A stretch of DNA of 64,000 nucleotides. Origin: Myxococcota bacterium. Lineage in GTDB: Bacteria > Myxococcota_A > SURF-8. Position numbers and translations under genes: made by a program. Of this stretch, positions 3,653 to 53,554 are shown piece by piece; within the stretch, counting starts at the first letter, position 1, and the number at the start of each line of letters is the position of its first letter. The notes below the pieces were generated by a model. It saw nothing but the letters and a program-made list of their open reading frames with translations. It had not been told where the DNA came from and searched no databases. Location of the stretch: the NCBI GenBank assembly GCA_963674735.2, contig CAXXQS010000001.1, positions 736,001-800,000 of the forward strand, written 5' to 3'.

Positions 3653-4699
3653 TCAGGGGGACTTGTGTGATCGCTCGTTCAGTCGTTGACGCGCGCGTTC
3701 GATGGCATGCCGGATGACTGTGTCGGTCGTTTGCGACTGGGCGATCGCCAGTGCGTCGAGAAGCTCTGTCCGTCCGCTGTTTCCGACTGCAATCGCCGCA
3801 TTTCGAAGGAATCCCGTCCATTTCGGACGCATGGCGGCGGTACCGGCGTAACGGGCAACAAAGTCGTTTTCGGGGCAGGTTAGGACCGTGGCGAGGTCGA
3901 TGTGGCGGGGAATTCGTTCAAGCAGAATATCGGGGTGCAGGCTTTCCCGGGCTTGTCGGTTGAAGGGACACACTTCCTGGCAGCCATCGCAGCCGAGCAC
4001 CCAATTTCCCATTCGATCCATAATCTCAGCGGGGATTTCACCCCGATTTTCAACGGTATGGAAGCTGATGCAGCGACGTGGGTCGATGCTATGGGTTGCG
4101 TGTAGCGCGCCTGTCGGACAAGCCTTTAAGCAGAGCGAACAATCGCCGCACTGTGATTCGAGCGGGCTGTCGACGGGCAAGGGCAGGGTGGTCAGGATCA
4201 CGCCGAGGAAAACGTAAGAGCCGTAGTCGGGATTGATCAGGCAGGCATTTTTTCCAACAAAGCCTAATCCGGCGGCCTGAGCCAACGCTCGTTCCATGAC
4301 CGGTCCATAATCGACGTAGGCCCGTTGTGTGCCGCCTTGAAGGGTCATCCAGGGTGTCAATTTCTTGAAAGCGCTCTCGAAAATCCGATGATAGTCACGT
4401 CCTGTTGCGTAACGGCTGATGCGTCCCGTTCGCCCGGCAACGGGACGAGAGGGGGTCGGGTGTTTGTAGGGCAGGCCCAAGACGAGGGCGGCCTGCGCGC
4501 CAAGCAAGATGCGGTCCGCTCCTTCGCTCCTATCGCGACGCGTTGCCAGATAGGGCATGTCGCTTCCAAAACCGGCGTCCAGCCATTCCTGGAAACGTGT
4601 GTAATGACGAGGGGCCGGAACGGGCGGAGCGACTCCGACGAGTGGGAAACCCAACGAGTGGACCAGACCGAACAGTTCGGTTTTTAGATCCGTGTTCAT
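3653..4699 (-). CDS. queG: tRNA epoxyqueuosine(34) reductase
   Basis: ISRYATGRDYH, VDYGPVMER, CGDCSLCLKACPTGA and GCDGCQEVCPFN motifs. Confidence 0.95.
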   Translation of the reverse strand: MNTDLKTELFGLVHSLGFPLVGVAPPVPAPRHYTRFQEWLDAGFGSDMPYLATRRDRSEGADRILLGAQAALVLGLPYKHPTPSRPVAGRTGRISRYATGRDYHRIFESAFKKLTPWMTLQGGTQRAYVDYGPVMERALAQAAGLGFVGKNACLINPDYGSYVFLGVILTTLPLPVDSPLESQCGDCSLCLKACPTGALHATHSIDPRRCISFHTVENRGEIPAEIMDRMGNWVLGCDGCQEVCPFNRQARESLHPDILLERIPRHIDLATVLTCPENDFVARYAGTAAMRPKWTGFLRNAAIAVGNSGRTELLDALAIAQSQTTDTVIRHAIERARQRLNERSHKSP

Positions 4700-5742
4700 T
4701 TAGCCGAGACCTCGTCCAATATGCGGCGGATTGTGGCGGCGGCGTGTTGGATATCGGCTTCCGAAATGCCTGCATGCGTGACGAAACGGTATTCGCCGCC
4801 TTCGGGGGGATACGTGAGCACGCCTTCCGCTTGCAGGCGTGCGACGAAGTTGTCGTCGGATAGTTTGCCGGTCTGCAACTGTACGAAAACCATGTTGATT
4901 TCCACCGGGCGCGTCACTCGTGCGCCCGGTACAGCGCTGAGTGATTCGGCCAACAGGTGGGCGTGGCGATGATCGTCTTTCAAGCGTAAACGCATATCGT
5001 GGATGGCAAGACGTCCGGCAGCGGCCATGAAGCCAGCCTGACGCATACCGCCCCCCATGATCTTACGGTTTCGGCGAGCCTGGTCGATGAAGGAGCGGGT
5101 GCCGACCAGGATGGAACCAACCGGGGCGGCCAGCCCTTTCGAAAGACAAAAAGTGATAGAGTCGGCATAGTTGGCCATTTCGGCGGGATCGACGTCGAGA
5201 GCGGTGGCGGCGTTGAAAAAGCGCGCACCGTCGATATGGATGGGGACGTCGTGTTCATCCGCCAGAGAATGTAGGTCGGCAAGCGCCGACATGGGCATGA
5301 CGTTTCCCATGGCGGTGGCTTGTTCCAGGCATATCAACCCGGTGCGCGGGTAGTGGATATCGTCACCGCTACGCAGACGCGGAAAGATGTCGTCGGGTTT
5401 GAGATAACGACCGTTTTCCGGCAGTACGGATCGAAGCTGGACCCGTGAAATCAGAGCCGACGCTCCGGCTTCGTGCTGGACGATGTGGCTGCTTTCACTC
5501 AGGATCACTTCATTGCCCGAATGGGTATGAGTCAGGATCGCGCATTGGTTGCCGAAGGTGCCCGATGGGATGAACAGGGCGGCTTCTTTTCCCAGCAATT
5601 CTGCCGCTTCGTTTTCAAGTTTGTTGATAGTGGGGTCTTCACCCAGGACATCGTCGCCGACTTCACAAGAGAACATGGCTTCGCGCATGGCTTGGGTCGG
5701 CTGGGTGACCGTGTCGGATCGCAGGTCGATTGGGGTGGGCAT
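4696..5742 (-). CDS. ltaE: Low-specificity L-threonine aldolase
   Basis: IDLRSDTVT, GDDVLGEDPT, HIDGARFFNA, CLSKGL (PLP Lys) and GGGMRQAG motifs; start set at ATG 5742. Confidence 0.93.
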   Translation of the reverse strand: MPTPIDLRSDTVTQPTQAMREAMFSCEVGDDVLGEDPTINKLENEAAELLGKEAALFIPSGTFGNQCAILTHTHSGNEVILSESSHIVQHEAGASALISRVQLRSVLPENGRYLKPDDIFPRLRSGDDIHYPRTGLICLEQATAMGNVMPMSALADLHSLADEHDVPIHIDGARFFNAATALDVDPAEMANYADSITFCLSKGLAAPVGSILVGTRSFIDQARRNRKIMGGGMRQAGFMAAAGRLAIHDMRLRLKDDHRHAHLLAESLSAVPGARVTRPVEINMVFVQLQTGKLSDDNFVARLQAEGVLTYPPEGGEYRFVTHAGISEADIQHAAATIRRILDEVSAK

Positions 5743-5813
5743 CGGGACGCCTCGCAGTTCGGGGTTGAACATCGCGCGATTGTACCGATTTTCCCTTTAC
5801 TTGGCGAATTCTT

Positions 5814-6023
5814 TTAAACGGATGGAGGCTCGCCTTCAGAAGGCTTGGAAGCGGCTTTTTCATCTGCGCTCGGCTTTTCTTTGACAAGGACGGAATCGGG
5901 TTCGGGTGTCGGCACGCGACAGGAGTCCGACATTCAGGTATTGACGCCGAGACGCGGAAGTATCCAGCGGTTGAGAATGAACCACAGGGCGAAGAATCCG
6001 ATAATCCACAGACCATCTTTCAT
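5814..6023 (-). CDS. Small single-TM protein with an in-frame TGA at codon 30 (candidate selenoprotein, 69 aa; 29 aa if TGA is a stop)
   Basis: Read manually: AAGGAGG RBS, ATG at 6023, MKDGLWIIGFFALWFILNRWILPRLGVNT-TGA-MSDSCRVPTPEPDSVLVKEKPSADEKAASKPSEGEPPSV-TAA; hairpin directly after the TGA; absent from the ORF track. Confidence 0.6.
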
Positions 6024-6126
6024 TTGGGCAGTCCTCCTTGATCAGGGGTCAGTAGTATGGCAAAAGTCGTGCCTGAAAACCATGACAATCGTCAGTGAGG
6101 GAAATTAAAAGGAGGTCGGAAAAGTA

Positions 6127-6155
6127 TTGACATCATCTTGTGCCCCGAATACCCT
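6127..6155 (+). promoter_or_regulatory. Putative sigma70 promoter for serC
   Basis: TTGACA-17 nt-TACCCT about 80 bp upstream of the serC start. Confidence 0.4.
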
Positions 6156-6233
6156 CAGGCCCATTGGGAGCATGCGGGGCCGGATGTCGGCTTCCACATA
6201 GAGACGTGCTTAAGAACGAACGAGGAGAAGGCC

Positions 6234-7319
6234 ATGCCCGAACGGATTTATAATTTTGCCGCGGGACCCTGCACTTTGCCGCTTGAGGCACTCAAAAAGG
6301 CGCAGGCCGAATTCGTGAACTTCGAGAATGCCGGAATGTCGCTCTTTGAAATGAGCCATCGTGGTAAAATCTACGACAAGGTTCATATGGATTGCATGCA
6401 GTTGGTCCGCGATGTTTACGAGTTGCCCGAAACCCACAAGGTTCTGTTCATCGGCGGCGGCGCTACTTTGCAATTCACCATGATTCCGATGAATTTCCTC
6501 GCTCCCGGTTCCTTTGCTGAGTACATCAATACCGGAACGTGGGCGACCAAGGCTTACAACGATGCCAAACTGATTGGCGATGCGCGTGAAATCGCCACCG
6601 GTAAACCCAATGAATTCATGACGATCCCGAAGGATTTCAAGGTGGATCCGAAGGCCGCCTATCTACACCTCACGACCAATAACACCATTAAAGGGACCGA
6701 GCTGCACAAGTTGCCCGAGACGAACGGGGTGCCGATTTTTGCCGATATGAGTTCGGATTTCATGTCGCGGAAAGTAGACTGGAGCCGCATTGGATTGGCC
6801 TATGGCGGTATCCAGAAAAATCTCGGTCCTGCCGGTATGTCGCTGGTTATCATCCGCAACGATATCCTTGAGAAGGCGCGAACCGATATTCCGTCGTATT
6901 TGCGTTACGATTTGCATGCGAGTAAAGACAGCATGTACAACACACCGCCCATGTTCCAGATTTACATGATGAAGCTGGTTCTGGAGTGGGTGCGCGACAA
7001 CGGTGGCTTGGAGGGGATGGACAAGCGCGCCGATGAGCGTTCGAACATCGTTTACAAGGCCATTGACGATAATTCGACTTACTTCCGGTGCCCGGTCAAT
7101 CGTGAAGATCGCTCCCGTATGAACGTCTGTTTCCGCCTGCCGAGCGAGGAACTGGAAGCCAAGTTCGTCGCCGAAGCCTTGGCTGCCGGAATGAACGGAC
7201 TGAAGGGCCACCGAAGTGTCGGCGGCTGCCGGTCTTCATTGTACAATGCCATGCCGATCGAGGGAGCGGAAACCCTGGCTGCTTTCATGGTGGACTTCAT
7301 GAAAAAGAATCCTGCCTAA
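6234..7319 (+). CDS. serC: Phosphoserine aminotransferase
   Basis: YNFAAGP, EMSHRG, DMSSD, QKNLGPAG, YNTPP and GHRSVGG motifs; GAGGAG RBS before ATG 6234. Confidence 0.97.
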   Translation: MPERIYNFAAGPCTLPLEALKKAQAEFVNFENAGMSLFEMSHRGKIYDKVHMDCMQLVRDVYELPETHKVLFIGGGATLQFTMIPMNFLAPGSFAEYINTGTWATKAYNDAKLIGDAREIATGKPNEFMTIPKDFKVDPKAAYLHLTTNNTIKGTELHKLPETNGVPIFADMSSDFMSRKVDWSRIGLAYGGIQKNLGPAGMSLVIIRNDILEKARTDIPSYLRYDLHASKDSMYNTPPMFQIYMMKLVLEWVRDNGGLEGMDKRADERSNIVYKAIDDNSTYFRCPVNREDRSRMNVCFRLPSEELEAKFVAEALAAGMNGLKGHRSVGGCRSSLYNAMPIEGAETLAAFMVDFMKKNPA

Positions 7320-7396: not shown

Positions 7397-8407
7397 TTAT
7401 CCGCGATTCTGTTCGGCGATCATTTCGATAGCTTCTTCAATAGTTTCGCGCACATCGGGGTCGGGGTCCCCCAGACAATTTCGCAAGACTTCCTTGAAAC
7501 ACTCATCCCCTAAAAGACCGATTGCGTAGGCGGCATCTCCCCGTATTTGCGGCTGGTCGTTGCGCAATAGTTCGCATAGAGATGGCCCCATCAGGCAGGC
7601 GAGATCGTGATGGGTTACGGTAAGTTCTTCGACGATACGTAAAACAGACATGTGCAGGCTGATTTCCTGTTCCTGCAATAACTTGGGTAATGCGCGAATG
7701 GCATCGGGTTTTTCAATCAATGTGGGAAGCAAGTCTTCCAACGTTCCGTTGGTCAGTTGGGATTTCAACGTTGTGACCCATGGCTGGGGATCGGGACCCA
7801 AAACCGTGAGTAAATCCTCCAGCTTGGTTTGGCCCACCCAGCGAATTTGCTTGTCGATGACCAACGTCGGAGTGGAGCGAATGCCCAGTTCGGTCGCTCT
7901 TTTCATGAAGCGCGAGGCGTCGATGATCCATGTTGTGAGACCCTCGTTCAGTAGCGTGATGGCGTTCATGTAGGTAACCATCTGGGCGCAGTGAGGACAT
8001 TGGGGAGTAACATAAACCTCTGTTTCAAGCACGAGCTCTTTGAAGCGTGCCGCATATTGCTGGGTGTATTTCAACGTTTGGCATTCGATATCGGCAGCAG
8101 CCGCCAATGTGGCGATGAAGGGGGCCCATTCTCCATCCAGAGGGAGTGCCGCATAACGGACGCCTTCTCCATGAGGACCGGATAAGGCCAGGTAGGAGAG
8201 CTCGCTGTCGGAGACGATTTCGCTAATTTCGATAGCTGGGAAGTGCTCTTTAATTTCGCTAACAAAATCTTTCAGTTCCCTTCCCAATAGGTCGTCTGGG
8301 CTTGTTGCGGCGAGGGTTAACTGAATCCGGTTTTGATAATCTCCGATCGCCTGTCGCAACTCGTTGATTTGGTTGTCTGTCAACATGCCTATTTCTCTTG
8401 TTGTCAT
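7397..8407 (-). CDS. AhpF-N-like thioredoxin-fold protein (CPHC) fused to HEAT repeats
   Basis: Tandem thioredoxin-like folds with VTPQCPHC and STPT; C-terminal IRGDAAYAIG / DPDPDVRE HEAT motifs. Confidence 0.75.
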   Translation of the reverse strand: MTTREIGMLTDNQINELRQAIGDYQNRIQLTLAATSPDDLLGRELKDFVSEIKEHFPAIEISEIVSDSELSYLALSGPHGEGVRYAALPLDGEWAPFIATLAAAADIECQTLKYTQQYAARFKELVLETEVYVTPQCPHCAQMVTYMNAITLLNEGLTTWIIDASRFMKRATELGIRSTPTLVIDKQIRWVGQTKLEDLLTVLGPDPQPWVTTLKSQLTNGTLEDLLPTLIEKPDAIRALPKLLQEQEISLHMSVLRIVEELTVTHHDLACLMGPSLCELLRNDQPQIRGDAAYAIGLLGDECFKEVLRNCLGDPDPDVRETIEEAIEMIAEQNRG

Positions 8408-8535
8408 GATTATCCCGAAATGCTAACACACTCCTGTTTGCTAGTCAATGTACTGAAATTACATATAGAAACGGGCGGATTAGGAAGAAGCATTCATGCC
8501 TTACGCGTTTGGGTGATCGCGAAAACCGCGAATGA

Positions 8536-9801
8536 CTATTTCGTGAGGTGACGGTCGTTGGTTTGGATTACTTTTACCAGGGTTTCCCAAAATGCAGCGG
8601 TTCCCGAAGGAAGTTCGGTTCCATCGAAACAGATTGCGAACCGGCTCGAAAATACTCCTTCCGCGGAAGCATTTCGATGGCGGAGTTTCAGTCCGACAGT
8701 TTGTCCACGCTCGTTGTGAAAAGTCAAGCGAACCTGATCGCTGCTTTGTTCGATCTCCCCGAGCCACCATCCGGCGCGCGGTGTTTGGGTGGAGAAGGGG
8801 GCGACCAGCCTTTCCAATTCGTGTCTGGACAAAAACAAAGCCTCTGTTCGGAAAAACGTATCCCATCGTTTCGCGGTGACCGGCTTGAACTCGCTCCAGC
8901 CGAAGTGCTCGGCATAGAGGCTGGGTACGCCGAAACAAAATGCCTGGCAGGCGCAGGTTTGACAGGCCGGTTGTTTGGCGTAGTCGTGCATGGAGATCCA
9001 AGTGCTTGATCCTTTTTCACTTTGGCGCAAATCCAGCAGTTCGGTATATCCGAAAAGGGCGCGGGGTAATTGCACGAGGATACAATGGGGGAAAAGCTGG
9101 AAGGCGGTTCGAGCCGGGAGTTGCGCAAGATCCCATCGATTGACGTTTTCGACCAGCTTGTCATACCGCTCGACCAGTTCTTGAAAGCGCGGTTTGGCGG
9201 CACCGATGTATTTGAGACCGAGCATGACGACGGTATGCGGGGAAAATCCGCCGAGGAAACGGGCGATAGACTCAAGCTGTGGCGCGTTATAGTGGTTGAC
9301 CACGGTTTGGGTGAAGTAATCGATTTGTTCGCCTGCCTGTTTGGCCGATTGCAGATTGGCCAGCCCCTGGCGCACCCGTTGAAATCCGCCGGTTTTACCG
9401 CACAGGCGGTCGTGCAGAGCGTCTGTGTGTCCGTGGATGCTCAGTTCGACGGTTGTCATTCCGGCGTCGATCAAGCGGTCAAGATAGGCGCGGTCGGAGA
9501 GGGCGCGGCCGTTGGTTCCCACCGAGATACTTCGGGGATGGACTGTTTTCGCCAGGGCGATGAACTCGGCCAGCCGTGGGTTGGTGGTGGGCTCGAATCC
9601 GCCGAAACGGATCAGGCTACCGGGTTCGACGGTGGCAAGCCGTGCTTCAAGTTCGTCGGGTCGTCGGATTGCGATCTGCGCGGCGTTTAATCGGTTTTCG
9701 TGATCGGAGCAGAACAGGCAACGGTGCGGGCAACCGACGCCCACGGAGAATTCGACGACCGTTTTTTGCGGCGGCGGAGTGACGGGAAGTCGGGAACTCA
9801 T
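8536..9801 (-). CDS. Radical SAM protein with a C-terminal Cx2Cx5C motif and an extra domain
   Basis: CPHRCLFC, FGGFEP, TNGR, SIHG and CQTCACQAFC motifs. Confidence 0.85.
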   Translation of the reverse strand: MSSRLPVTPPPQKTVVEFSVGVGCPHRCLFCSDHENRLNAAQIAIRRPDELEARLATVEPGSLIRFGGFEPTTNPRLAEFIALAKTVHPRSISVGTNGRALSDRAYLDRLIDAGMTTVELSIHGHTDALHDRLCGKTGGFQRVRQGLANLQSAKQAGEQIDYFTQTVVNHYNAPQLESIARFLGGFSPHTVVMLGLKYIGAAKPRFQELVERYDKLVENVNRWDLAQLPARTAFQLFPHCILVQLPRALFGYTELLDLRQSEKGSSTWISMHDYAKQPACQTCACQAFCFGVPSLYAEHFGWSEFKPVTAKRWDTFFRTEALFLSRHELERLVAPFSTQTPRAGWWLGEIEQSSDQVRLTFHNERGQTVGLKLRHRNASAEGVFSSRFAICFDGTELPSGTAAFWETLVKVIQTNDRHLTK

Positions 9802-11123
9802 GGCTTGTTCTCCCCCGAGCGCCGTGCATTGCGTAAGATCGTGCCGGATACCGTCCGCCAGATTTTGTCGAGATGCCGTTCGAGCCGCTCGCCGTCATAG
9901 CAGATGGCGATACCGGCCTGTTGCTGGGCTTGGGGGGCGTGAACGGGATCGACCAGCCGCACCGGGAGGCGTTGGCCGTCTTCTCGGGTGAAAATCAGCC
10001 TGGCGGCGCGTTCTTCGATGCGTACATCCGTCAGTCGCCAGCCTCCGATGGCGTTTGTCTCGGAGAAAGGGTGAACCAGGGCGCGAGCGGCGGCTTCCGT
10101 TAGAAAAGGTTTGAGCGGCGCTGATTGACGGTCTGCGTGTGTTTGAGAGACGATTGCTTGCCAGGATGTGTCATCGATCGGCGCGAATTCATCCCAACCG
10201 AAGAGATCCCAATAGGCGATTTCGACGCCTTCACAAAAGCTTTTCGCAACGCAGGCACGACAGGGTAACCCATATTGCTTGTTACCGGCTTGTCCTCCGA
10301 TTACGCGGTCATCGCGGCTGACGAAAGCCACGCGGTTCAAACGGCCTTGAAATCGAGCGGGCAGTTTAAGATTCAAGCAAGGAGGCAGGCCGGACAGGGT
10401 TAACGGCAGCGGCAAGTCCTGCTTGTCCCATATTTGGGCTTGTCGGATGATGTCCTGGTAGGCGGGAGTCAACGTTTCCGCTTGTTCGCCGGCGCGTCCC
10501 ATCAACTGCAGCGCGAGTCCGACGACGCCATCCGGCCTATACGGCGCAAGCACAGCGAGAAGTTCGGGAATGTGGGGCAGGTTGTCACGGACCAACGTCG
10601 TTTGTATCGTGAGGCGCAAAGCGGCCCCGGCTCGGCGCAATTCGGAGGCATATGAAATGGCGGCGAGCGTATCGTCGAAACTGCCCGGCGTGGCCGTAAG
10701 CGCATCGTGAAGATCGGCGGAATGACCGTGAAGACTGATTTCGAGGGTGTTGAGACCGGCAGAAACCAAGCGCGACAAAAGGTCGGACTTGGTCGATGGC
10801 TGCGAACGACCCAGGCCGCGCCCGCTCGTGATCAAACCGATGTCGCGTGCGCCGTGAGCTTTAGCGGTGGCGATCATCTGCGGCAGCTCGGGGTTGGTCA
10901 ACGGTTCTTGCCCGCCGAACTGAATGCGCTCGATGCCTTCCACCTTCGCCAGATGTTCTTTGAGATCGGCGACGGTCCGAACGCTTTCCTGCGGTAAACG
11001 GGTGGCAAAACCGGCCTCCGAACAGAACACGCAGCGGTTGGGGCAGCCCAATCCGACCGCAAACTCCAGGCTGTCGAATGCGGGGGATTCCGTCGATGTC
11101 GGTTGGGAGGGCGCGGAGGTCAT
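9798..11123 (-). CDS. Radical SAM protein, paralog of the adjacent gene
   Basis: CPNRCVFC, FGGQEP, TSGR, SLHG and CRACVAKSFC motifs; ATGA overlap with the downstream paralog. Confidence 0.85.
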   Translation of the reverse strand: MTSAPSQPTSTESPAFDSLEFAVGLGCPNRCVFCSEAGFATRLPQESVRTVADLKEHLAKVEGIERIQFGGQEPLTNPELPQMIATAKAHGARDIGLITSGRGLGRSQPSTKSDLLSRLVSAGLNTLEISLHGHSADLHDALTATPGSFDDTLAAISYASELRRAGAALRLTIQTTLVRDNLPHIPELLAVLAPYRPDGVVGLALQLMGRAGEQAETLTPAYQDIIRQAQIWDKQDLPLPLTLSGLPPCLNLKLPARFQGRLNRVAFVSRDDRVIGGQAGNKQYGLPCRACVAKSFCEGVEIAYWDLFGWDEFAPIDDTSWQAIVSQTHADRQSAPLKPFLTEAAARALVHPFSETNAIGGWRLTDVRIEERAARLIFTREDGQRLPVRLVDPVHAPQAQQQAGIAICYDGERLERHLDKIWRTVSGTILRNARRSGENKP

Positions 11124-11171: not shown

Positions 11172-13226
11172 TTACGGCGACGAAGGCGTTTCGTCAATGC
11201 CGGGCCTCAGGCGTGTACGATCGATCTCCGAATTTTGGCGTAGGAGCATATCGTGGTGCAGGGCGCGGATCGGCCGGTCGCCGGGGTGGCGGGTCAACCA
11301 GGCTTGCAAGCGCTCGATCGCCTCGGCGCGGAGTCCGGCCTTTTCTTGCAACAGTGCCAGGCGCTGCAGGAGAAGAGAATTCTCGGGGTCGGCGGCCACG
11401 GCGCGTGTTTGATGTTTGAGCGCTTGGGCAAGATCTCCGGCTGCATCGAAATAGAAGGCCAGGTAAACATCGTTTTCGGGATGAGATGGAAAGCGGGCCA
11501 ACCAGCGCACACGAGCCGATTCGGCGGCCTGATTGCGTCCGAGGTTTTGCAGGGCCAGACTTCGTCCCGCGTAGGCGAGGTAGGTCTCGGGGTAGCGCTG
11601 AATCGCCAGCTCGAACCATTTCAGCGCGAGTGCCGGGGCCGGTTTAAGTTGTTGCATGGCAGCGCGGATTACTCGGTCGGACTGCTCTTGATGGAGCTCA
11701 TCCAAATCGAGCGGACTGGCCAACTCTTCGACTTTGTCCCAGTCGGTGACTGCTTCGGTCAACTCGTGACGGGCGAGGTTGACATAGCCGCGCCACTGGT
11801 ACGGGGTGTCCCAGAAGGGTGCGATTTCGATCGTGCGATCCAGAATCGCCCGTGCTTCCTCGAATTTCTCTTCCGCATACAAGAACTTGCCGTAGCCGAG
11901 TTGGGCATTGGCACAATTGGGAGCATTGGCCGCCAAGCTGGCGAAAAGCGAGGGGTTATCACGCCAGCGGGGGCCGATCGTGATTTGGTAAGCCAGAAAG
12001 ATCAGCAGTAACAAAGAGCCTAATACGAACAAACGCGGGGTGCGAGATCGCCATCGTGTTTCAGCCGTGGAGATCATGGAGGCGGCCGCCAACGAGAGTC
12101 CGATGCTTGGGAGAAATAAACAACGGTCGGCAAACAGGACCGTGACGGTGGCCAGGGCTTGGACCACTGGTGACAAAGCCAGGACGCCCCAGGTGACTCC
12201 GATGGCAGGTAGTCGGCGTCGTGCAAGGCCCCAAATCGTCAGTCCGGCCAAGGTCAACAACACAAGCCATGCGCCCAACATCCGTGGCCACTGTTCCGGA
12301 CCGAACACCGCGAGCTGGTTGTAGGTCCATTCCATCGGTTGCGGGAAGGGCCACACAAAACGCAGCAGATAGTTGAGAAGCAACCACCCGCCGTTTAGAT
12401 GTCGCCACAACTCTGGCAGGGCAACGGTCGGGTTGGCGACCAAGGGCACGTCGCGCGAGATCTGCCCCAGAACCGAAATTCGCAGTGACATATAGGCAGC
12501 GAAAACAAGTACCGAAACCGCTAAGACGGGCCATGTTCGGCGGAGGGTGGAGCGCCAATCCTGTTTTGTTTGCGGATCGGCATACACCAGCAGCAACAGA
12601 ATTCCCGGGGCGACGACCCCGCTTTCTTTGGACAGCAAAACCAAGGCGTAGAGGATGCCGCCCAAAACGATGCGCAGAAAGCCGATGCGAATCGAGCCGC
12701 GTTGCCAGGTCACCAGCAGGTAAAGCAGCACGAAAATCGACGACATCAACTCGGCTCGCTGAACGATATTATGAGTGATTTCAGCGTTTACGGGATGTAG
12801 AGCAAAGAGTCCGGCTGCGAGAAAGGCTGCGCTGTCCGGTAGGAAACGTCGTGCCAGAAAAAATACCAGCAGGGAGACCAAAACCACCAGCAGCAGATTG
12901 ACAACCAGGAATGAAAAAGGCTGGTTGGGGGCCATTTGCCATTGGATGGCGAAGGTCAGGGCGGGCAGCGGGCGATACGTGCCGGTGGTCACGCCTTCGG
13001 AGCGTCCCCAGAAATCCGCCTTCCAAACCTCGCTGTAAAGGCCTTGGCTGACCGTGCGGCTGATGCGGATGGCCACGTCGTCGTCGTACACGAAACCGTT
13101 TTGCAGGTTGGTCGCGTAGGCGGCCAAGATCAGCAAAATCAAGGCCCAGATCCACAGGCGCAAAGGCATGTGTTTTCCGTCTGGAAGAGATTCGGGCTTG
13201 GATTGTTCACCGGCTGTCGTTTTCAT
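11172..13226 (-). CDS. TMTC-like membrane glycosyltransferase (O-mannosyltransferase-like) with TPR repeats
   Basis: FVYDD, DFWG, YRPL, LFALHP, QRAEL and LSKESG motifs, many TMs, C-terminal TPRs. Confidence 0.85.
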   Translation of the reverse strand: MKTTAGEQSKPESLPDGKHMPLRLWIWALILLILAAYATNLQNGFVYDDDVAIRISRTVSQGLYSEVWKADFWGRSEGVTTGTYRPLPALTFAIQWQMAPNQPFSFLVVNLLLVVLVSLLVFFLARRFLPDSAAFLAAGLFALHPVNAEITHNIVQRAELMSSIFVLLYLLVTWQRGSIRIGFLRIVLGGILYALVLLSKESGVVAPGILLLLVYADPQTKQDWRSTLRRTWPVLAVSVLVFAAYMSLRISVLGQISRDVPLVANPTVALPELWRHLNGGWLLLNYLLRFVWPFPQPMEWTYNQLAVFGPEQWPRMLGAWLVLLTLAGLTIWGLARRRLPAIGVTWGVLALSPVVQALATVTVLFADRCLFLPSIGLSLAAASMISTAETRWRSRTPRLFVLGSLLLLIFLAYQITIGPRWRDNPSLFASLAANAPNCANAQLGYGKFLYAEEKFEEARAILDRTIEIAPFWDTPYQWRGYVNLARHELTEAVTDWDKVEELASPLDLDELHQEQSDRVIRAAMQQLKPAPALALKWFELAIQRYPETYLAYAGRSLALQNLGRNQAAESARVRWLARFPSHPENDVYLAFYFDAAGDLAQALKHQTRAVAADPENSLLLQRLALLQEKAGLRAEAIERLQAWLTRHPGDRPIRALHHDMLLRQNSEIDRTRLRPGIDETPSSP

Positions 13227-44808: not shown

Positions 44809-46401
44809 TTATACCGCCAGTTGAACGCCCTTCCGGCGGGCGCGACGCAAGGTCCAGCGAAGCAAACCGAACAGGATAAACAGAATCGGGACGCCGATCA
44901 TGTTCATGTACTTGACAAGGCCTTTTTCCCAACTCTCCAACTCGGCGATGGGTTTGCTCGTGATGCCGCGGCTGCGGATCGTAATCAACGCCTCGTCTTG
45001 CAGAAGCCAGTCGATGGTGTTGATGAGGAACACCAGGTTCTGCGGGTCGGTGGTCTGATCCTGGGCGAAGGAGCCGTCGCCGATGACGAGAATGCGCGTA
45101 TCCGGGCTCTGTTTCAGGATGTCGTCGGGGTTGGACATGTAGGGTTTGTCCGCTGCGGAGGAGTCGATCTTATCGGCGAAATAGCTCGTGAAGCGTCCTT
45201 TGGCCATGGCCATGAGCGGAAACGGTCCGGTTTTGGACGTGCCCATGGGAGACAGATTTTCCATCGGGTTGAGCTTGTACATGCCTGTTTGCAGCCAACT
45301 GCGTTCCGAGGAACGCCCGAGCACGGTGTAAGTCAGGTCCGGTTTGTCGGCGGCGATCTCCAAGGAGCTGACGAAGCTGAAGGACAGGGCATCGAGGGTG
45401 TTGGTGAGCGAACTGTCGCGGTCGAAATCGGTGACGACCGGAATCAGCGGGTAGTTGATGACGTTGGTCATGCGGAACATGCCCTGCTGACTGGCGACGT
45501 TGATGCGCTTGTTCTGCAGATCGAGAACCAGATCATCATTGACGGTGATGCCGTAGTGCTTCAGCAGGACATCCAGCCCGTTGTCGATATTGGTTCCATG
45601 GAAGTTGCGCAAATCGACGTTGACTTTGTCCGTCAAAAAGGCGATGGTGCGCCCCTTCATCAGGAACTGGTCGATGCGGAAAAGCTCTTCGTCGGTCAGC
45701 TTTTCCGTGGGGTTGACGATCAACAGGGTGTCCATTTCGTCATTGATGGCGTTTCCTTCTAGGGCATTGACCATCTCGACTTTGTAGGCCTTTTGGAGCT
45801 CGCCCATAAGCTGGCGCATGGTTTCGTTCGGATTCGGCTCGCCATGGCCTTGCAGGAAGCCCACAACCGATAGCTTTTCGCTGGTAAGCTTGCGGATCGT
45901 CGAGGTGAATTCGTATTCCAGTCCGGTGGTGGATTTCACAACCGGGATGACTTCTTTGCGGTCGGCATAATAGAAGGCAATGCCGAGAAAGGCCTGCTTG
46001 ACCTGGAATTTATCATCTTGAATTTCCTGAATTTGAACGGGCGGGATGCCGAGCATCATCAGGTTGGTTTTCTCGGTTTCGTCTTCGCCGGGATCGATGA
46101 ATTCGAAGGTGAAGCGGCCTTTGGAGTAGGCGGCATATTCCTCGAACAGGTCTTTCACGAATGTGGTGTGGGAGTTGTAGGGCGCGGGCAGATCCGACGT
46201 GAAGTAGGCCTTGGCGTGCACCTTGTCGTCCAGGTTCTTCATGATGTTCCGACTGGCGTCCGACAGCGAATACATGCCGTTTTCCGTTAGATCCAGGCGG
46301 CCGAACAGGCGTACCGATACCAGGTTGACCAGGACCAGAATGCCGACGACCGTCAGAATGAACAAGCCGATGGAGGCCTGCGTTTTGACATTGTGTTTCA
46401 T
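44809..46401 (-). CDS. GldG-family ABC auxiliary component
   Basis: DLTENGMYSLS, GFLQGHGE, IDQFLMKG and NTIDWL motifs. Confidence 0.88.
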   Translation of the reverse strand: MKHNVKTQASIGLFILTVVGILVLVNLVSVRLFGRLDLTENGMYSLSDASRNIMKNLDDKVHAKAYFTSDLPAPYNSHTTFVKDLFEEYAAYSKGRFTFEFIDPGEDETEKTNLMMLGIPPVQIQEIQDDKFQVKQAFLGIAFYYADRKEVIPVVKSTTGLEYEFTSTIRKLTSEKLSVVGFLQGHGEPNPNETMRQLMGELQKAYKVEMVNALEGNAINDEMDTLLIVNPTEKLTDEELFRIDQFLMKGRTIAFLTDKVNVDLRNFHGTNIDNGLDVLLKHYGITVNDDLVLDLQNKRINVASQQGMFRMTNVINYPLIPVVTDFDRDSSLTNTLDALSFSFVSSLEIAADKPDLTYTVLGRSSERSWLQTGMYKLNPMENLSPMGTSKTGPFPLMAMAKGRFTSYFADKIDSSAADKPYMSNPDDILKQSPDTRILVIGDGSFAQDQTTDPQNLVFLINTIDWLLQDEALITIRSRGITSKPIAELESWEKGLVKYMNMIGVPILFILFGLLRWTLRRARRKGVQLAV

Positions 46402-46434
46402 CTGACTCTTCCTCTTGTCTCCAGGCCGTCAAGC

Positions 46435-47157
46435 CTATTTGATTCGTTCGCTTTCAAGGGCGTGCACCGAAAACATCAAAAACATGCTGATGAAGGTCGC
46501 GTAGTAAATCAGGTCGCGGGTATCGATCACGCCGCGTGCGATGTTGTTGAAGTGGTAATCGATCGATAAAAACTGCAGGGTCGAAGCCATGAAAGCCGGC
46601 GCGAACATGAGCACTTTGTCCAGGATAAATACCACGAAACACAGCGCGAGGCCGACGATGAAGGCCACGATCTGATTCCGGCTGATCGAGGAGCAGAACA
46701 TGCCCAGCGCCAGATAACCGCCTCCAAGCAGCATCAATCCCAGATAACCGCCGATCACCGGGCCCCAGTCGAGATCGCCCAGGAAGCTGATGGTGATGGG
46801 GTAGGTGAGGGTGAGCAGACCGGCGACGGCCAGCAGACCGAAGGCGGCCAGATATTTTCCGAGAATGATGGAGGTGCTGGACATCGGCAGAGTAACCAGC
46901 AATTCCAACGTTCCGGTTTTGCGCTCTTCGGAAATTAAACGCATCGTGATGGCCGGTGCGAAGAAAATGAACAGGGTCGGCGTGATGCCGAACAACCCGC
47001 GCAAGGTGGTTTCGCCGACCAGGAAGAATTGTTGAAAGAACAGCCAGCCGGTGATCAGGAGAAACACCGTGATGACGATATAGGCGATCGGCGAATTGAA
47101 ATAGCTGGCAAATTCGCGTTTGAAGATCGCCCAAGTGGTTTTGATGGTCTGTTGCAT
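46435..47157 (-). CDS. GldF-like ABC-2 permease
   Basis: YFNSPIAY, EERKTGTLELL and RGVIDTRD motifs. Confidence 0.88.
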   Translation of the reverse strand: MQQTIKTTWAIFKREFASYFNSPIAYIVITVFLLITGWLFFQQFFLVGETTLRGLFGITPTLFIFFAPAITMRLISEERKTGTLELLVTLPMSSTSIILGKYLAAFGLLAVAGLLTLTYPITISFLGDLDWGPVIGGYLGLMLLGGGYLALGMFCSSISRNQIVAFIVGLALCFVVFILDKVLMFAPAFMASTLQFLSIDYHFNNIARGVIDTRDLIYYATFISMFLMFSVHALESERIK

Positions 47158-47172
47158 CGGAACCTCTCGCGG

Positions 47173-48102
47173 CTATTGAACCGTCAGTTTGCGGAATACG
47201 TCTTCAAAGCTGACCGTTTCGCTGTGCAGCTCAAGCAGTGTCCAGCCCTTGTCGACGGCCAATTGGAAAACTTTGCCCCGGATATCGTGGATCTTTTTCG
47301 TTTCCAGCGTGAAAACCGGATGTCCGTCGATGTCGGGGCGTGCGGCGACATTTTCAACGAAATCGACGCTCTTCAGAATCTCAGCGGTCCCGTCGTAGGG
47401 CTTGTCGAGCTGAAGGGTGATGACGGTGTTGCTTTGATCGCGCTCCAGCAATTCCGAAGGGGTGCCGTCGGCGACCAGGCTGCCGTTATTGATGATGATC
47501 ACGCGGTTGCAGGTGGCGGTGACCTCCGGCAGAATATGCGTGGACAAAATCACGGTTTTCTCTTTGCCGATTTCCCGGATCAGATTTCGGATTTCCACGA
47601 TCTGGTTGGGATCGAGACCGGAGGTCGGTTCGTCGAGGATCAAGACCTCGGGGTCGTGAATCATGGCCTGGGCCAGGCCGACACGTTGCCGATATCCGCG
47701 GGATAACTGGCTGATGTCTTTGGCCACGACATCTTTCAGCCCGCAGACCTTGATCATCTCGGCAAGCTTGGATTTCTTCTGACTTGCCGGGATGTCGCGG
47801 ATTTCGGCGATGTAATTGAGATACTCAATCACCATCATGTCTTCGTAAAGCGGGAAGCTTTCCGGGACATAGCCGATCAGCTTTTTGGTTGCCATGGGAT
47901 CCTGGGCGCAGTCGATACCCTTGATGGTGGTTTTGCCTGCGGTCGGCTGCAAGTAGCCCGTAATGATCTTCATGGTGGTGGTTTTGCCGGCACCGTTGGG
48001 GCCTAGGAACCCCAAAATCTCGCCGTGTTGCACCTCGAAGCTGATGTTGTCCACGGCTGTGACCGGCCCATATTTTTTCGTTAGATTCACTACCGAAATC
48101 AT
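47173..48102 (-). CDS. GldA-like ABC ATP-binding protein
   Basis: GPNGAGKTT, LSRGYRQR and LDEPTSGLDP motifs. Confidence 0.92.
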   Translation of the reverse strand: MISVVNLTKKYGPVTAVDNISFEVQHGEILGFLGPNGAGKTTTMKIITGYLQPTAGKTTIKGIDCAQDPMATKKLIGYVPESFPLYEDMMVIEYLNYIAEIRDIPASQKKSKLAEMIKVCGLKDVVAKDISQLSRGYRQRVGLAQAMIHDPEVLILDEPTSGLDPNQIVEIRNLIREIGKEKTVILSTHILPEVTATCNRVIIINNGSLVADGTPSELLERDQSNTVITLQLDKPYDGTAEILKSVDFVENVAARPDIDGHPVFTLETKKIHDIRGKVFQLAVDKGWTLLELHSETVSFEDVFRKLTVQ

Positions 48103-49757: not shown

Positions 49758-50244
49758 ACAGGTTGTGACCGGCCAAGGCGAGGTGCTGTGGGAGGCCACC
49801 TACGGCGTTTACAACTGGCACCGGACGTACATCCCCGAACTCGGCATCTACACCAGCCTCGACCCGCTCTTCCAGAACCCCGGTGCGCTGTATGGGTATG
49901 CTGGAACAAATCCGGTTTGGAACGTGGATCCGGAGGGGAGAAATGCATGGGTCATAGGATTTATTGGAACATATATTGTTGGAAAAGCTGCTTTTGCTGG
50001 TTATGATGAATACAATAAGAGTGATAGTACGTGGGAATCTGTTGTAAAGGCATCAGCAAAAGGGGCCGGGATGGCGGTGCTTACAGTGGCTGGGTTTAAA
50101 TTTAATCGGGGTGTTGGCTTCGTGTTACTCATTACGGATGCTTTAATAACGGCAACGGATGTTGCCTTTCGTGAAGTGGAAGTTGGAGGTGATCTAAAAT
50201 CGGAAGATGTTGGTGAAGACGGTGATGAAAATTGTGATTATTAA
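49750..50244 (+). pseudogene. Orphan Rhs core fragment plus C-terminal toxin-like domain (module 1)
   Basis: YNWHRTYIPELGIYTSLDP...YGYAGTNP...DPEG, then a lower-GC C-terminal tail. Confidence 0.85.
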
Positions 50245-50262
50245 GTATTGAGAGCAGCGATC

Positions 50263-50667
50263 ATGGTAGTGAAAAAGTTTCATATCAGAGGAAACTGGGG
50301 AATGATAACGATATTGATTCTCGTTATTTCAATTCTTCTATGTGATGTGTTCAGTAATGAAATAATATTGCCTTATGTATTTAGCATAAAGATGTTGCAA
50401 TCGGCATTATTTATATTGTATGGTATATTATCCTTACTAATTCTATTTACACATAATATTTATGTTCATACTGATAATGTGGTCGAGTTTGTTGATTTGA
50501 TTTCTAGAAAACGGATTAGTATTGACTCAATAAAGGGATTTCATTCTAAAAAAGGCCTTATTCTTTTCAGTGGCAGAAAAGTTAAGTATTTTTTCCCACG
50601 GCTACAATACTATCCCAAGAAAGATTTTCATGAATGGATAGATAAGACTTTCACAAAATTAGATTAA
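50263..50667 (+). CDS. Putative immunity protein for Rhs module 1 (2 TM)
   Basis: Very AT-rich ORF immediately after the Rhs C-terminal domain. Confidence 0.6.
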   Translation: MVVKKFHIRGNWGMITILILVISILLCDVFSNEIILPYVFSIKMLQSALFILYGILSLLILFTHNIYVHTDNVVEFVDLISRKRISIDSIKGFHSKKGLILFSGRKVKYFFPRLQYYPKKDFHEWIDKTFTKLD

Positions 50668-50824
50668 CCTTGGCCTTGACATTCAGCTATGATTTTGTTA
50701 GCTTCCATCAAAATTACGAGAAATACCCACGATCCAACATGGAGCGTTATTTGCGGCTACTAAAACCATCGGTATGCTGAGAAGAATAACCAGCAAAGTG
50801 AACAAGATGTAATAAAATTACAAA

Positions 50825-51241
50825 ATGTTTTCATTCTCCAATCCATACTTAGTTGCGCTTGGAATACCGGCCATATTATTGGCGTCAGGTGCTTTTGCAA
50901 AAAAACTGGCAAGAGGCTCATCTTGGGAGCGTTTTGATTTCTTTCTTGGAGTGGAATTCACTTTGGCAGCGATGTCATCCGCTCTCATTTATATATTTGA
51001 TTTATCTAAAATTGGTTCAACTAGTAATCCCATTCCCGTATCCTTGATGAATAAATTTGCTGCGACGGCAGTATTTATTTCACTGTCCTTTTTTTTGTTG
51101 CTTTATATACTGTCCACACACCAAGACTGGCAAAGGCGAAATAATAATCCTCGCGGTCAAATATTCTGGTTAGGTGTGATTGCTAATATTATCGGTGCAG
51201 GCCTCCTTGCGACCTTTGTATTGCTTGTTAAGGGGGTATAA
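50825..51241 (+). CDS. 4-TM membrane protein of unknown function
   Basis: 138 aa, four hydrophobic helices, AT-rich; 4 nt upstream of the TIR gene. Confidence 0.75.
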   Translation: MFSFSNPYLVALGIPAILLASGAFAKKLARGSSWERFDFFLGVEFTLAAMSSALIYIFDLSKIGSTSNPIPVSLMNKFAATAVFISLSFFLLLYILSTHQDWQRRNNNPRGQIFWLGVIANIIGAGLLATFVLLVKGV

Positions 51242-51245
51242 TGCA

Positions 51246-51857
51246 ATGAAACGCGATTTAATAGATAAATTTAGCAGCTTTACCAGCATCACCGGTTTAG
51301 TTATTGCGTTATTATCAGTGACACTTGATGCTCAATTCGCAAATGATTCGAACTCTCTAATGCTATCATTTATGATTGCCGCTTCAGCCATAGCTGCAAT
51401 CGGAGCATACACAAAAATATTCTCTGGAAGAAGAAGACCTAAAACAGGCAAAGGCCGAATATTTTTGATCTACGCAAAGGAAGACACGGAAAGAATTGAG
51501 AAAATATATGATGAATTAAAGAGATCAGGACTTAAGCCGTGGCTTGACACCCATGATATTCTTCCAGGTCAAGATTGGAAACAAACGATCACCGAAGCAC
51601 TTAAAGAATCTGATCTAGCACTTGCTTGTCTGTCAAAAGCCTCAGTCAGTAAAAAAGGTTTTGTTCAATCGGAACTGAAAATAGCTCTTGATATTTTAGA
51701 AGAACGATCTCGGGGAGTAAGCCCTGTTATTCCCGTACGCTTGGAGGAAACTGAAGTCCCCGAGCGACTTAAAAACTTGCAATGGATTGATTTGTTCGAG
51801 AATGGTAATATCATGAAATTAAAAACGGCGATAGAGAAAGCTTCAGCCATGGGCTGA
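51246..51857 (+). CDS. Membrane-anchored TIR-domain protein (2TM-TIR)
   Basis: Two N-terminal TMs, then IFLIYAKED, PWLD...ILPGQDW, CLSKAS...GFVQSE, VIPVRLE and QWIDL. Confidence 0.9.
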   Translation: MKRDLIDKFSSFTSITGLVIALLSVTLDAQFANDSNSLMLSFMIAASAIAAIGAYTKIFSGRRRPKTGKGRIFLIYAKEDTERIEKIYDELKRSGLKPWLDTHDILPGQDWKQTITEALKESDLALACLSKASVSKKGFVQSELKIALDILEERSRGVSPVIPVRLEETEVPERLKNLQWIDLFENGNIMKLKTAIEKASAMG

Positions 51858-52128
51858 ACTATGAAATTTAATTCGATCATTTATCGCGCTACTTTTCTGG
51901 GACGATAATTTCGCCGGAGGTATACGTTGAATACCAAATCAAGACGAAAGATAATGCAGTGCTCCCCGTTGTATGGACCACCTGATAAGTTAGAATCCGG
52001 GTTGCGAATGAGCCATGCGGCTCGACCGTTTGAATCGTAGCACAAATCACCTTTCCGATCATCCTTTTCGTGATACATTTATCGCACCCGTCCTGAGGAT
52101 AGGGCTCCGCTGGAGAACGACCCGAGCG

Positions 52129-52200
52129 GCGGGTGGTCGTGACAACCCCTGACCTTTGAATGACGAATGGGTGGCATGGGCTAAGCGCAGCTTGCCCATG
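52129..52200. repeat. 72-bp junction element, copy A
   Basis: About 62/72 identical to 53104-53175; ends in the hairpin CATGGGCTAAGC-GCA-GCTTGCCCATG. Confidence 0.85.
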
Positions 52201-52771
52201 TGCAGCCGAGGCAGATCGACGACGGCGAGGGCTACGGCGTCTACAACTGGCACCGCACGTACATCCCCGAGCTGGGCATCTACACCAGCCTCGACCCGCT
52301 GCTACAGGATCATGGGGCGCTCTACGGCTACGCCGGGGCGAATCCGATGTGGTTCGTGGATCCGGAGGGACTTTGCTATTGGGATGTGAATATTTCACTT
52401 GGAAAGTTGATTGGTGTCACAGGGGGAATTCAAATCGATCCGGAAACATGGGATATTTTTCCTTACTTAGGTGGATATGTTGGAACACCAGGCTGGTCTA
52501 TAACGCTGTCTCCAAACGATCCTGCACCAGCCGGGGTAGGTCGGGCAAATTTCTTGCCCGACACATGAATTGTCGGGCACAATGTGCCCGACCTACAGGG
52601 CTAATCGGTGCTGCATCAGGTGCACTTGCCGCTGCAACTGCTGGCGCAACAACAGCATTATCCGGCACAGTAGCTGCTACGAGCACTGTGGCAGCCACAG
52701 CGCTCACAGATTACATAACAGTTCACGGAACTGATCCGAGTCAAGACCAACAAAATGTATGTGAATATTGA
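52200..52771 (+). pseudogene. Orphan Rhs module 2, interrupted by a REPIN
   Basis: QIDDGEGYGVYNWHR...DPEG followed by a C-terminal domain; the frame changes at the 52536-52596 palindrome; tail ends NVCEY. Confidence 0.8.
52536..52596. repeat. GTAG-family REP doublet (REPIN)
   Basis: GTAGGTCGGGCA-AATTTCT-TGCCCGACA-CATGAAT-TGTCGGGCA-CAATG-TGCCCGACCTAC. Confidence 0.85.
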
Positions 52772-53100
52772 TTCCATACTATGTTAATGGAGCATACATG
52801 ATTGTAATAGAAAGATTGCTTGTCTACTCTTCGTCCCTTTCCATTTCAATTCTTTGGGGAGGGATAATTCTTGATGAGTCAAATGATTCAATAATAACAT
52901 TAATAGTGTTGGCATGTTTATATTCAATGATTCTACTTCTCCCACTGATTGTATATTATAAAAGATATGAAATTAATTTTCTAGAACATAATAAACCTAG
53001 TAAAGGAATTGGTGCGACGATATTTGCGATTATAAGTTCCATTTTCTTTCTACTAATAAATATCTATATGTTATTTTATTACGTTGTGAAGACAGGGTAG
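52768..53100 (+). CDS. Putative immunity protein for Rhs module 2 (3 TM)
   Basis: AT-rich hydrophobic ORF overlapping the stop of the C-terminal domain. Confidence 0.6.
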   Translation: MIPYYVNGAYMIVIERLLVYSSSLSISILWGGIILDESNDSIITLIVLACLYSMILLLPLIVYYKRYEINFLEHNKPSKGIGATIFAIISSIFFLLINIYMLFYYVVKTG

Positions 53101-53103
53101 CCA

Positions 53104-53175
53104 GCGGGTGGCCGTGACGACCCCTGATCATTGAAAACAGGATGGGTGGCATGGGCTAAGCGCAGCTTGCCTATG
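53104..53175. repeat. 72-bp junction element, copy B
   Basis: Starts 3 nt after the immunity stop and precedes Rhs module 3. Confidence 0.85.
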
Positions 53176-53554
53176 GAAAGGGAGGATGACCTGGAATCGC
53201 GCGGGTTCGTGATCGCCGAGCGCACGGGACGTCCCGAGCAAGTCGTGACCAGCCAGGGCGATGTACTGTGGGAGGCCACGTATGACGCCTACGGCGCGGC
53301 CGAGGTGTCCGTTGCGACGCTCGGCATGCCCCTGCGCTATCCCGGGCAGGTCGACGACGGCGAGGGCTACGGCGTTTACAACTGGCACCGCACGTACATC
53401 CCCGAACTCGGCATCTACACCAGCCTCGACCCGCTCTTCCAGAACCCCGGCGCGCTCTACGGCTACGCTGGGGCGAATCCGATGTGGTTCGTGGATCCGG
53501 AGGGAAAAATTGCATGGTATCCGGCTGTTGCAACTGGATACGTTTTAGCAAGAG
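53176..53554 (+). pseudogene. Orphan Rhs module 3, C-terminal domain truncated by an IS
   Basis: GRPEQVV...WEATYDAYG...PLRYPGQ...DPEG; IS end begins at 53555. Confidence 0.85.

Follow-up and report, generated by a model that had tools for sequence, protein, structure and literature searches.

A small gene on the minus strand of a 64,000-nucleotide stretch of Myxococcota DNA (contig CAXXQS010000001.1, positions 736,001 to 800,000; the whole stretch analysed is called the window below) carries an in-frame TGA. This mini-gene, at 6023-5814, is a genuine member of a large and unnamed family of single-pass membrane proteins. Its TGA stands where the relatives have a conserved cysteine, and is therefore probably a codon for selenocysteine (Sec, U); site-specific decoding of the UGA would make the product a selenoprotein with a U-x4-C motif. 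The one feature that exceeds chance is the similarity to related proteins, which is present before the TGA as well as after it; the open reading frame (ORF), the AAGGAGG sequence in front of it and the hairpin behind the TGA do not.

The mini-gene lies in a gap of 461 nt between a threonine-aldolase-like gene and serC. On its minus side follow the aldolase-like gene (4696-5772) and then queG (3653-4699), both on the minus strand and thus co-oriented with the mini-gene, while serC, on the plus strand from about 6234, flanks the gap on the other side. The start codon is the ATG at 6023-6021, and the AAGGAGG is located 9 nt upstream, which is the right spacing for a start at this position. Codons 1-29 (6023-5937) encode a short N-terminus and a hydrophobic helix ending in ...LPRLGVNT; codon 30 is the TGA (5936-5934), after which the frame remains open for another 39 codons until a TAA (5816-5814). 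The read-through product has 69 amino acids (aa), and its part past the TGA begins Met-Ser-Asp-Ser-Cys. An earlier note on this DNA had described a strong AAGGAGG ribosome-binding site, the TGA with 39 open codons behind it, the resulting T-U-M-S-D-S-C motif, and the shared orientation with the aldolase gene and queG; all of these are borne out by the sequence.

Taken singly, such features are common. AAGGAGG occurs 9 times in the window against 6.7 expected, a count that was reached in 25 of 100 shuffles. There are 382 TGA triplets with at least 25 stop-free codons on each side, so that an open frame alone carries no meaning and homology has to decide. TGA is also the stop codon of 21 of the 58 long ORFs, including five of the 14 with strong family matches; it is an ordinary stop in this window, and any read-through at 5936-5934 must therefore be site-specific. 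Global reassignment of TGA, as in genetic codes 4 or 25, is excluded by these 21 terminations.

The family was detected only by exhaustive HMMER and profile searches. A phmmer search of 1.84 billion cluster representatives (E ≤ 1e-3) gave 121 matches with alignments spanning the TGA, the best with E = 9.3e-9. Of these, 120 were judged true; P0008, a 1,096-aa repeat protein, was dropped because only its low-complexity tail aligns. A profile derived from the phmmer alignment was then run on a collection of 5.8 billion sequences, again with E ≤ 1e-3, and recovered 1,024 clusters of 50-90-aa single-pass membrane proteins. Residue percentages given here refer to 220 members, namely the 120 phmmer matches and 100 further profile matches.

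The 120 phmmer relatives are small (mostly 50-90 aa) and follow one common plan: a short N-terminus, often M-K-D; a helix with the motif W..LNRW.LP..G..T; the sequence C-M-S-G-x-C directly after the membrane; and a variable, disordered tail in which P, E, S, K and D abound. Nine helix residues are 69-100% conserved, and all nine are matched by the query: W14, L17, W20, L22, P23, G26 and T29 are near-invariant, and N18 and R19 are found in 69% and 73% of members, respectively. In the segment after the membrane, conservation amounts to 91% for C30, 85% for M31, 83% for S32, 86% for G33 and 98% for C35. If C35 is counted with the near-invariant helix residues, eight of eight are present in the window product. 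Its length of 69 aa is also close to the median of the Cys-forms (68 aa; interquartile range 62-81, n = 200). The earlier note had mentioned small proteins that end in '...LPxxGVxT' or continue with 'TCMSxxC', and the family alignment proved this correct.

Against a family hidden Markov model (HMM) built without the query, the window product scores 84.1 bits with Cys at the TGA position and 78.4 bits with X. Among six-frame translations of the window and of 80 loci fetched via the neighbouring aldolase gene, the mini-gene is the sole match to the family, the next best scoring 9.6 bits. The existence of this homologous family rules out that the mini-gene is a chance ORF and not a gene.

Existing annotation has little to say about these proteins. 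Among the 120 profile matches listed, none has a Pfam domain, and every name given is 'hypothetical protein'; an organism is given for four of them (Planctomycetes for two, Planctomycetota for one and Thermogutta for one). A look-alike search in the Atlas with a natural Cys-form relative led to a 'hypothetical protein' cluster, most commonly from Planctomycetota (score 0.85), which is of the level of a lead only. When the short ORF and the read-through product were compared with Pfam and NCBIfam, there was no NCBIfam match, and the only Pfam match of the query was at chance level (E = 0.16-0.25; 11 bits, where the cutoff is 25). NCBIfam models applied to all 121 alignment rows (query plus 120) gave strong matches only for a thioredoxin fusion, with a best E of 1e-35; a few other models each match one row, with E of at least 0.002. 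Word-index protein searches with the single read-through product, in the ranges of 37-121 aa and 30-36 aa, returned no match, and neither did tblastn against 72,556 plasmid records. A full-text search, which is blind to unnamed families, found no published description of the family.

In the 120 phmmer relatives, the column opposite the TGA is occupied by Cys in 101 cases, Trp in eight, the end of the chain in four, Arg in three, Ser in two, and Leu and Gly in one each; in the 100 further profile relatives it is Cys without exception (100/100). Conservation continues beyond it. With the family HMM built without the query and X placed at the TGA, the read-through product scores 78.4 bits, compared with 51.0 bits for the first 29 aa; the residues past the TGA therefore add 27.4 bits. 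When the tails were shuffled 1,000 times, the mean score was 55.7 and the maximum 69.6 bits, and none of the 1,000 reached 78.4. Conserved residues that the window product keeps in this part are M31, S32, C35, R36 and V37. The earlier note had looked to exactly these two features, Cys in homologues at the TGA position and conservation past it, and both are found. The same alignment disposes of an arrangement of two coupled mini-ORFs, the first ending at the TGA and the second starting at the ATG that follows, as this ATG encodes the conserved Met31 (85%) and the Cys-forms are single ORFs.

Four of the relatives without Cys at this column, each in a separate 50%-identity cluster, stop on the Thr just before it: P0072, P0087 and P0097 with 29 aa, and P0103 with 53 aa, the latter due to an upstream start. 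These relatives may terminate on TGA. The W-forms, in turn, look like products of TGA translated under genetic code 4. A gene call under this code reads every TGA as Trp, which would explain both the W-forms and the additional Trp in their tails; tail Trp is found in 4/8 W-forms as opposed to 14/200 Cys-forms (Fisher p = 0.002), and the late tail Trp of some W-forms precedes sequence that looks non-coding. Furthermore, each of the 15 non-Cys residues found at this position (W, R, S, L, G) has a codon that differs from TGA by a single nucleotide, and the R/S/L/G-forms may be former Sec codons that have mutated to sense codons.

Non-Cys forms also share a sub-motif. Gly33 is retained in 186/201 Cys-forms, but only in 2/8 W-forms (p = 1e-5) and 2/7 R/S/L/G-forms (p = 9e-5). 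Conversely, Ser34 occurs in 39/201 Cys-forms, 5/8 W-forms (p = 0.011) and 5/7 R/S/L/G-forms (p = 0.005). The window protein, with D33, S34, R36 and V37, belongs to this same subtype that lacks G33 and has S34, and its DNA has TGA. Truncated forms are at the lower length limit of the sequence libraries; at least 29 residues precede the column in 190/201 Cys-forms, so truncated forms are probably under-counted.

Several observations weigh against selenocysteine. The relatives are known from protein sequences alone, so the signs from truncated and W-forms are indirect and the numbers are small. Chain-end or W-forms account for six of the 20 relatives closest to the query and for six of the other 200, but 29-aa relatives are detectable only if very similar to the query, which biases their closeness, and the W-forms alone show a modest effect (mean of 15.25 versus 13.46 identities of 29; p = 0.013). 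The window has Asp at the column of G33, which is Gly in 86% of members, and a change from TGY to TGA needs a single substitution. A tRNA scan of the 64-kb window found no tRNA genes, and selA, selB and selD match none of the 58 long ORFs scanned in the window. Synteny gives no help either, as a family member is present in none of the 80 loci fetched via the aldolase gene. Finally, the RNA past the UGA is unremarkable. The model of the bacterial selenocysteine insertion sequence (SECIS) given in a 2026 review (PMC13188914, Fig. 2 legend) has an apical loop of 3-9 nt that begins with a G at one of its first two positions, an upper stem of 4-16 bp, a UGA-to-loop distance of 16-37 nt, and a minimum free energy (MFE) of at most -7.5 kcal/mol. 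A strict coding of this model finds no hairpin at the TGA at 5936-5934, and is passed by 155 of the 1,923 TGA triplets in the window (8.1%). The 66-nt fold has a z-score of -0.59, with 53 of 200 shuffles as stable, and Rfam returned no matches at gathering scores.

The hairpin put forward in the earlier note (UGUCGG, 14 nt, CCGACA; 5932-5907) is present and begins 1 nt after the UGA. Its apical loop, CUGUC, follows the UGA by 11 nt, compared with the published 16-37 nt, and the note had itself remarked that the loop is nearer than in canonical elements; the first two loop positions contain no G. The 30 nt past the UGA fold at -8.7 kcal/mol, and 9.7% of 4,000 30-mers drawn at random from the window do so equally well. 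Of the proposal of a 69-aa selenopeptide, the real gene, the TGA in place of a conserved Cys and the continuing frame stand, but the hairpin, viewed as a SECIS, is no better than chance. An alternative hairpin (UGUCG/CGUGC/CGACA), built on the second UGUCG copy, has G-U at loop positions 2-3 and fits the published geometry with regard to loop, G and spacing. Its energy is -3.6 kcal/mol on its own; enforced in the 63-nt region, the fold reaches -11.7 as compared with an MFE of -12.4 kcal/mol. A relaxed SECIS test is passed by 375 of the 1,923 TGAs in the window (19.5%), so this hairpin is compatible with a SECIS, but is no evidence for one. If Sec is inserted, the SECIS here is non-canonical. 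According to two recent papers, a share of the known bacterial selenoprotein genes lies outside the SECIS model, and bSECISearch missed at least 40 known genes (13.0%) in 20 test genomes (PMC13188914, PMC12013277).

Among other explanations, the one that survives best, although unlikely, takes the TGA as a true stop that arose by a nonsense change from TGY, leaving either a recent pseudogene or a protein that consists of the 29-aa helix only; the frame behind it would have stayed open and family-like owing to the short time since the change. It would account for the single-step difference from a Cys codon, for the lack of a convincing SECIS and of Sec machinery in the window, and for Asp in place of the 86%-conserved G33; open frames past a TGA are, as stated, common (382 in the window). 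Yet four other clusters end at the same column, which would be rare for independent nonsense changes. The subtype without G33 and with S34 that the window shares with W- and R/S/L/G-forms speaks for an old lineage rather than for recent damage, and the start signal, M31, S32, C35, R36, V37 and the family-typical length are all intact.

It is considerably less probable that the UGA is merely leaky, being read at a low level by a near-cognate tRNA (for Trp or Cys) without Sec, with the 29-aa peptide as the main product. No strong SECIS was found, and Trp at the column in 8/120 relatives may indicate that this residue is tolerated, provided that it stems from real TGG codons; the extra tail Trp, however, suggests code-4 gene calls rather than TGG. 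Nothing in the present data speaks for programmed read-through without Sec, and the column is Cys in 201/220 members, Sec being the usual replacement of Cys in selenoprotein families (PMC13188914, sections 6-7). An error in sequencing or assembly, with TGC or TGT as the true codon, which would turn the gene into an ordinary Cys-form, has slimmer prospects still: it requires a difference of one base only, but this would have to strike the very codon at which relatives end or show Trp, and the window has the motif of the non-Cys subtype (D33, S34) instead of CMSGxC. Least probable is a lipoprotein signal peptide with the conserved Cys as the lipidated +1 residue, as might be suggested by a Cys (201/220) directly after a hydrophobic segment, since the preceding residues are [IV]-x-T, with T at -1 in 99% and P/S/Q at -2, and depart from the lipobox consensus L-[AS]-[GA]-C, conservation is highest inside the hydrophobic segment (W14, L17, N18, R19, W20, L22, P23), unlike in signal peptides, and a second Cys at +5 is 98% conserved.

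Selenocysteine at codon 30 thus remains the preferred reading, and Sec decoding is documented in the phylum to which the family points. Table S8 of PMC4807772 gives selA, selB, selC and selD for four planctomycetes, i.e. two planctomycete isolates, Gemmata obscuriglobus and Isosphaera pallida. Table S9 of the same paper lists a 'hypothetical' selenoprotein candidate from a planctomycete isolate that had been annotated as two adjacent genes; it has a Cys homologue in Rhodopirellula sallentina and is positive in bSECISearch. This candidate, for which that table gives no sequence, could belong to the same family (PMC4807772).

Mechanistically, a stem-loop within about 40 nt past the UGA would recruit SelB together with Sec-tRNA(Sec), and translation would yield a protein of 69 aa whose Sec30-x4-Cys35 pair lies at the surface of the membrane. 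Topology can be predicted from the positive-inside rule. The 15 residues before the helix contain on average 0.80 Lys or Arg and 1.09 Asp or Glu, whereas the 20 residues from N18 to just past C35 contain 1.46 and 0.08, respectively; Lys plus Arg is greater on the C-terminal side in 119 members, equal in 87 and lower in 14. This distribution predicts an N-out, C-in orientation, which would place Sec30 and Cys35 at the cytoplasmic face. The conserved polar and aromatic residues within the helix suggest docking onto another membrane protein.

The pair would form a selenol/thiol centre that either cycles through a selenenyl-sulfide, possibly reduced by thioredoxin, or binds soft metals. Sec usually replaces a catalytic redox Cys (PMC13188914, section 7). 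One relative, P0078 (171 aa), carries the helix and a CMSGAC module, followed by a Pro/Glu/Lys-rich linker and a classical thioredoxin domain with WCSPC (TIGR01068, E = 1e-35), and 82/216 members have three to five Cys within 25 residues, i.e. one to three extra. Together, these three points favour a membrane-anchored selenol/thiol centre; the extra Cys also fit metal binding. The redox or metal-binding role that the earlier note had proposed for the selenopeptide is putative.

Comparison with known selenoproteins places the window protein as a probable new family within a known kind, that of bacterial selenoproteins with Cys homologues. Table 1 of PMC13188914 lists 119 prokaryotic selenoprotein families and subfamilies, almost every one of which has a Pfam or NCBIfam model as its definition. 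The query has no Pfam or NCBIfam model match or Sec motif match among these 119, with families defined by CDD or PANTHER only being compared by description alone, and the table includes no single-pass membrane protein of about 70 aa with U-x4-C. Predicted selenoprotein families with Cys homologues, including 'hypothetical protein DG/DW/DF' of deep-Sep (PMC12013277), resemble the present case in the alignment of TGA with Cys, the conservation on both sides, the possible TGA-bearing relatives and the partner Cys. In contrast to the predicted families in Table 1 of PMC13188914, there is no domain model match here and the SECIS would be non-canonical.

Three further systems are similar in individual respects, and the nearest in motif are TsoA, TsoB and the MerT-type transporter. 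In TsoA (the 'LULAxC motif', NF045695) and TsoB (rhodanese/DsbD-like, UxxxxU, NF045694), as described in PMC13188914, Sec is near a second Cys or Sec, as it would be here, and TsoB has the same x4 spacing. However, the query matches neither model at E ≤ 10, the architecture differs, and the sole match of NF045694 was to the thioredoxin part of P0078, the fusion relative. The putative mercuric transport selenoprotein of MerT type (PF02411, C/SxxU; PMC13188914) is likewise small and membrane-bound, has its Sec/Cys pair close to the membrane and is thought to handle a soft metal. It differs by the absence of a Pfam match on our side, by having several helices where the window family has one, and in motif and spacing. 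FeoB-associated Cys-rich membrane proteins share with the window family a single transmembrane helix at the N-terminus and a short stretch rich in Cys behind it. The conserved helix residues and C-M-S-G-x-C are specific to the window family, and no Pfam or NCBIfam model matched at E ≤ 10.

If the TGA encodes Sec, one unusual family is added to the 119 catalogued. Most known selenoprotein families are soluble enzymes with a thioredoxin fold, whereas the window protein is a very small membrane-anchored peptide. A reactive Sec/Cys pair would also be a functional handle on more than 1,000 clusters for which a name, a domain model and a known role are all lacking, and, owing to its non-canonical SECIS, the family could help to widen the bacterial SECIS model. 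Its escape from annotation is understandable, as gene callers have a floor of 29 aa, which is the length of the truncated half, and in some pipelines the TGA is apparently translated as Trp. With somewhat less assurance than for the window gene itself, we lean towards the view that the family as a whole is a previously unrecognised one of about 70 aa, single-pass, with Sec-x4-Cys, widespread in Planctomycetota-like bacteria and annotated as 'hypothetical' or split or truncated at the TGA. About one in ten members may be Sec forms, with a sub-motif U-M-x-x-S-C-R-V that lacks Gly, and their SECIS may lie outside the standard model.

Table 1. Coordinates of the mini-gene and associated sequence features in the window.
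Feature	Position	Strand	Remark
Shine-Dalgarno-like AAGGAGG	6033..6039	-	Not enriched in the window; position fits start at 6023
Codons 1-29, N-terminus and conserved transmembrane helix	5937..6023	-	51.0 bits against query-free family HMM
TGA codon 30, proposed selenocysteine codon	5934..5936	-	Opposite Cys in most members
Codons 31-69, M-S-x-x-C-R-V-P stretch and P/E/S/K-rich tail	5817..5933	-	Family-typical; gain in HMM score
TGT codon of Cys35, second residue of the U-x4-C pair	5919..5921	-	Column is Cys in 98% of 220 members
TAA stop of the read-through product	5814..5816	-	Sequence
Hairpin UGUCGG / 14 nt / CCGACA of the earlier note, extendable to 9 pairs, -8.1 kcal/mol	5907..5932	-	Fails two SECIS criteria
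Alternative SECIS-like hairpin UGUCG/CGUGC/CGACA, 5-bp stem, 5-nt loop	5907..5921	-	17 nt after UGA

With regard to the immediate surroundings, a 117-aa ORF at 5663-6016 (minus strand, different frame) shares sequence with the mini-gene and with the beginning of the aldolase gene; if chosen in automatic gene calling, this ORF could conceal the mini-gene. Between the TAA of the mini-gene and the aldolase start there is a sigma-70-like promoter match (TCGCCA, 17 nt, TACAAT) at 5779-5807 on the minus strand. Terminator-like sites were not found in 5500-6400. The gene at 4696-5772, which the earlier note called ltaE, scores 393.9 with the family of GntG pyridoxal-phosphate-dependent aldolases, above the cutoff of 230, and 303.7 with the model of low-specificity L-threonine aldolase, just below the cutoff of 312. 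Its nearest relatives in the genome collection are from Myxococcota metagenome-assembled genomes (loci L001-L004, 62-65% identity), which are also the best among the 80 aldolase loci; queG adjoins in none of the 80, and serC is near in one, in another arrangement. The lineage of the window thus seems to be poorly sampled.

On the other side of serC, which is on the opposite strand and separates it from the mini-gene, the region at 7397-11123 (minus), taken with 11172-13226, contains two tandem radical SAM genes that match HxsC4 with scores of 138 and 150 bits, the cutoff being 500. A TPR protein precedes the pair, and it is followed by a protein of 336 aa with a thioredoxin fold and a CPHC site, which has weak AhpF-N and PDO_seleno_TRX matches. 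These radical SAM and thioredoxin-fold genes may form a peptide-maturation cluster. Further away, the segment at 49765-54242 (plus) resembles an islet of polymorphic-toxin or defence genes with remnants of mobile elements, as it contains fragments of RHS-associated cores (49765-50244 and 53131-53589), a TIR-domain protein (51180-51857) and a fragment of an IS3/IS66-like transposase (53781-54242). At 44809-48102 (minus) there is a trio of GldA/GldF/GldG-like ABC transporter genes, each scoring under its equivalog cutoff.

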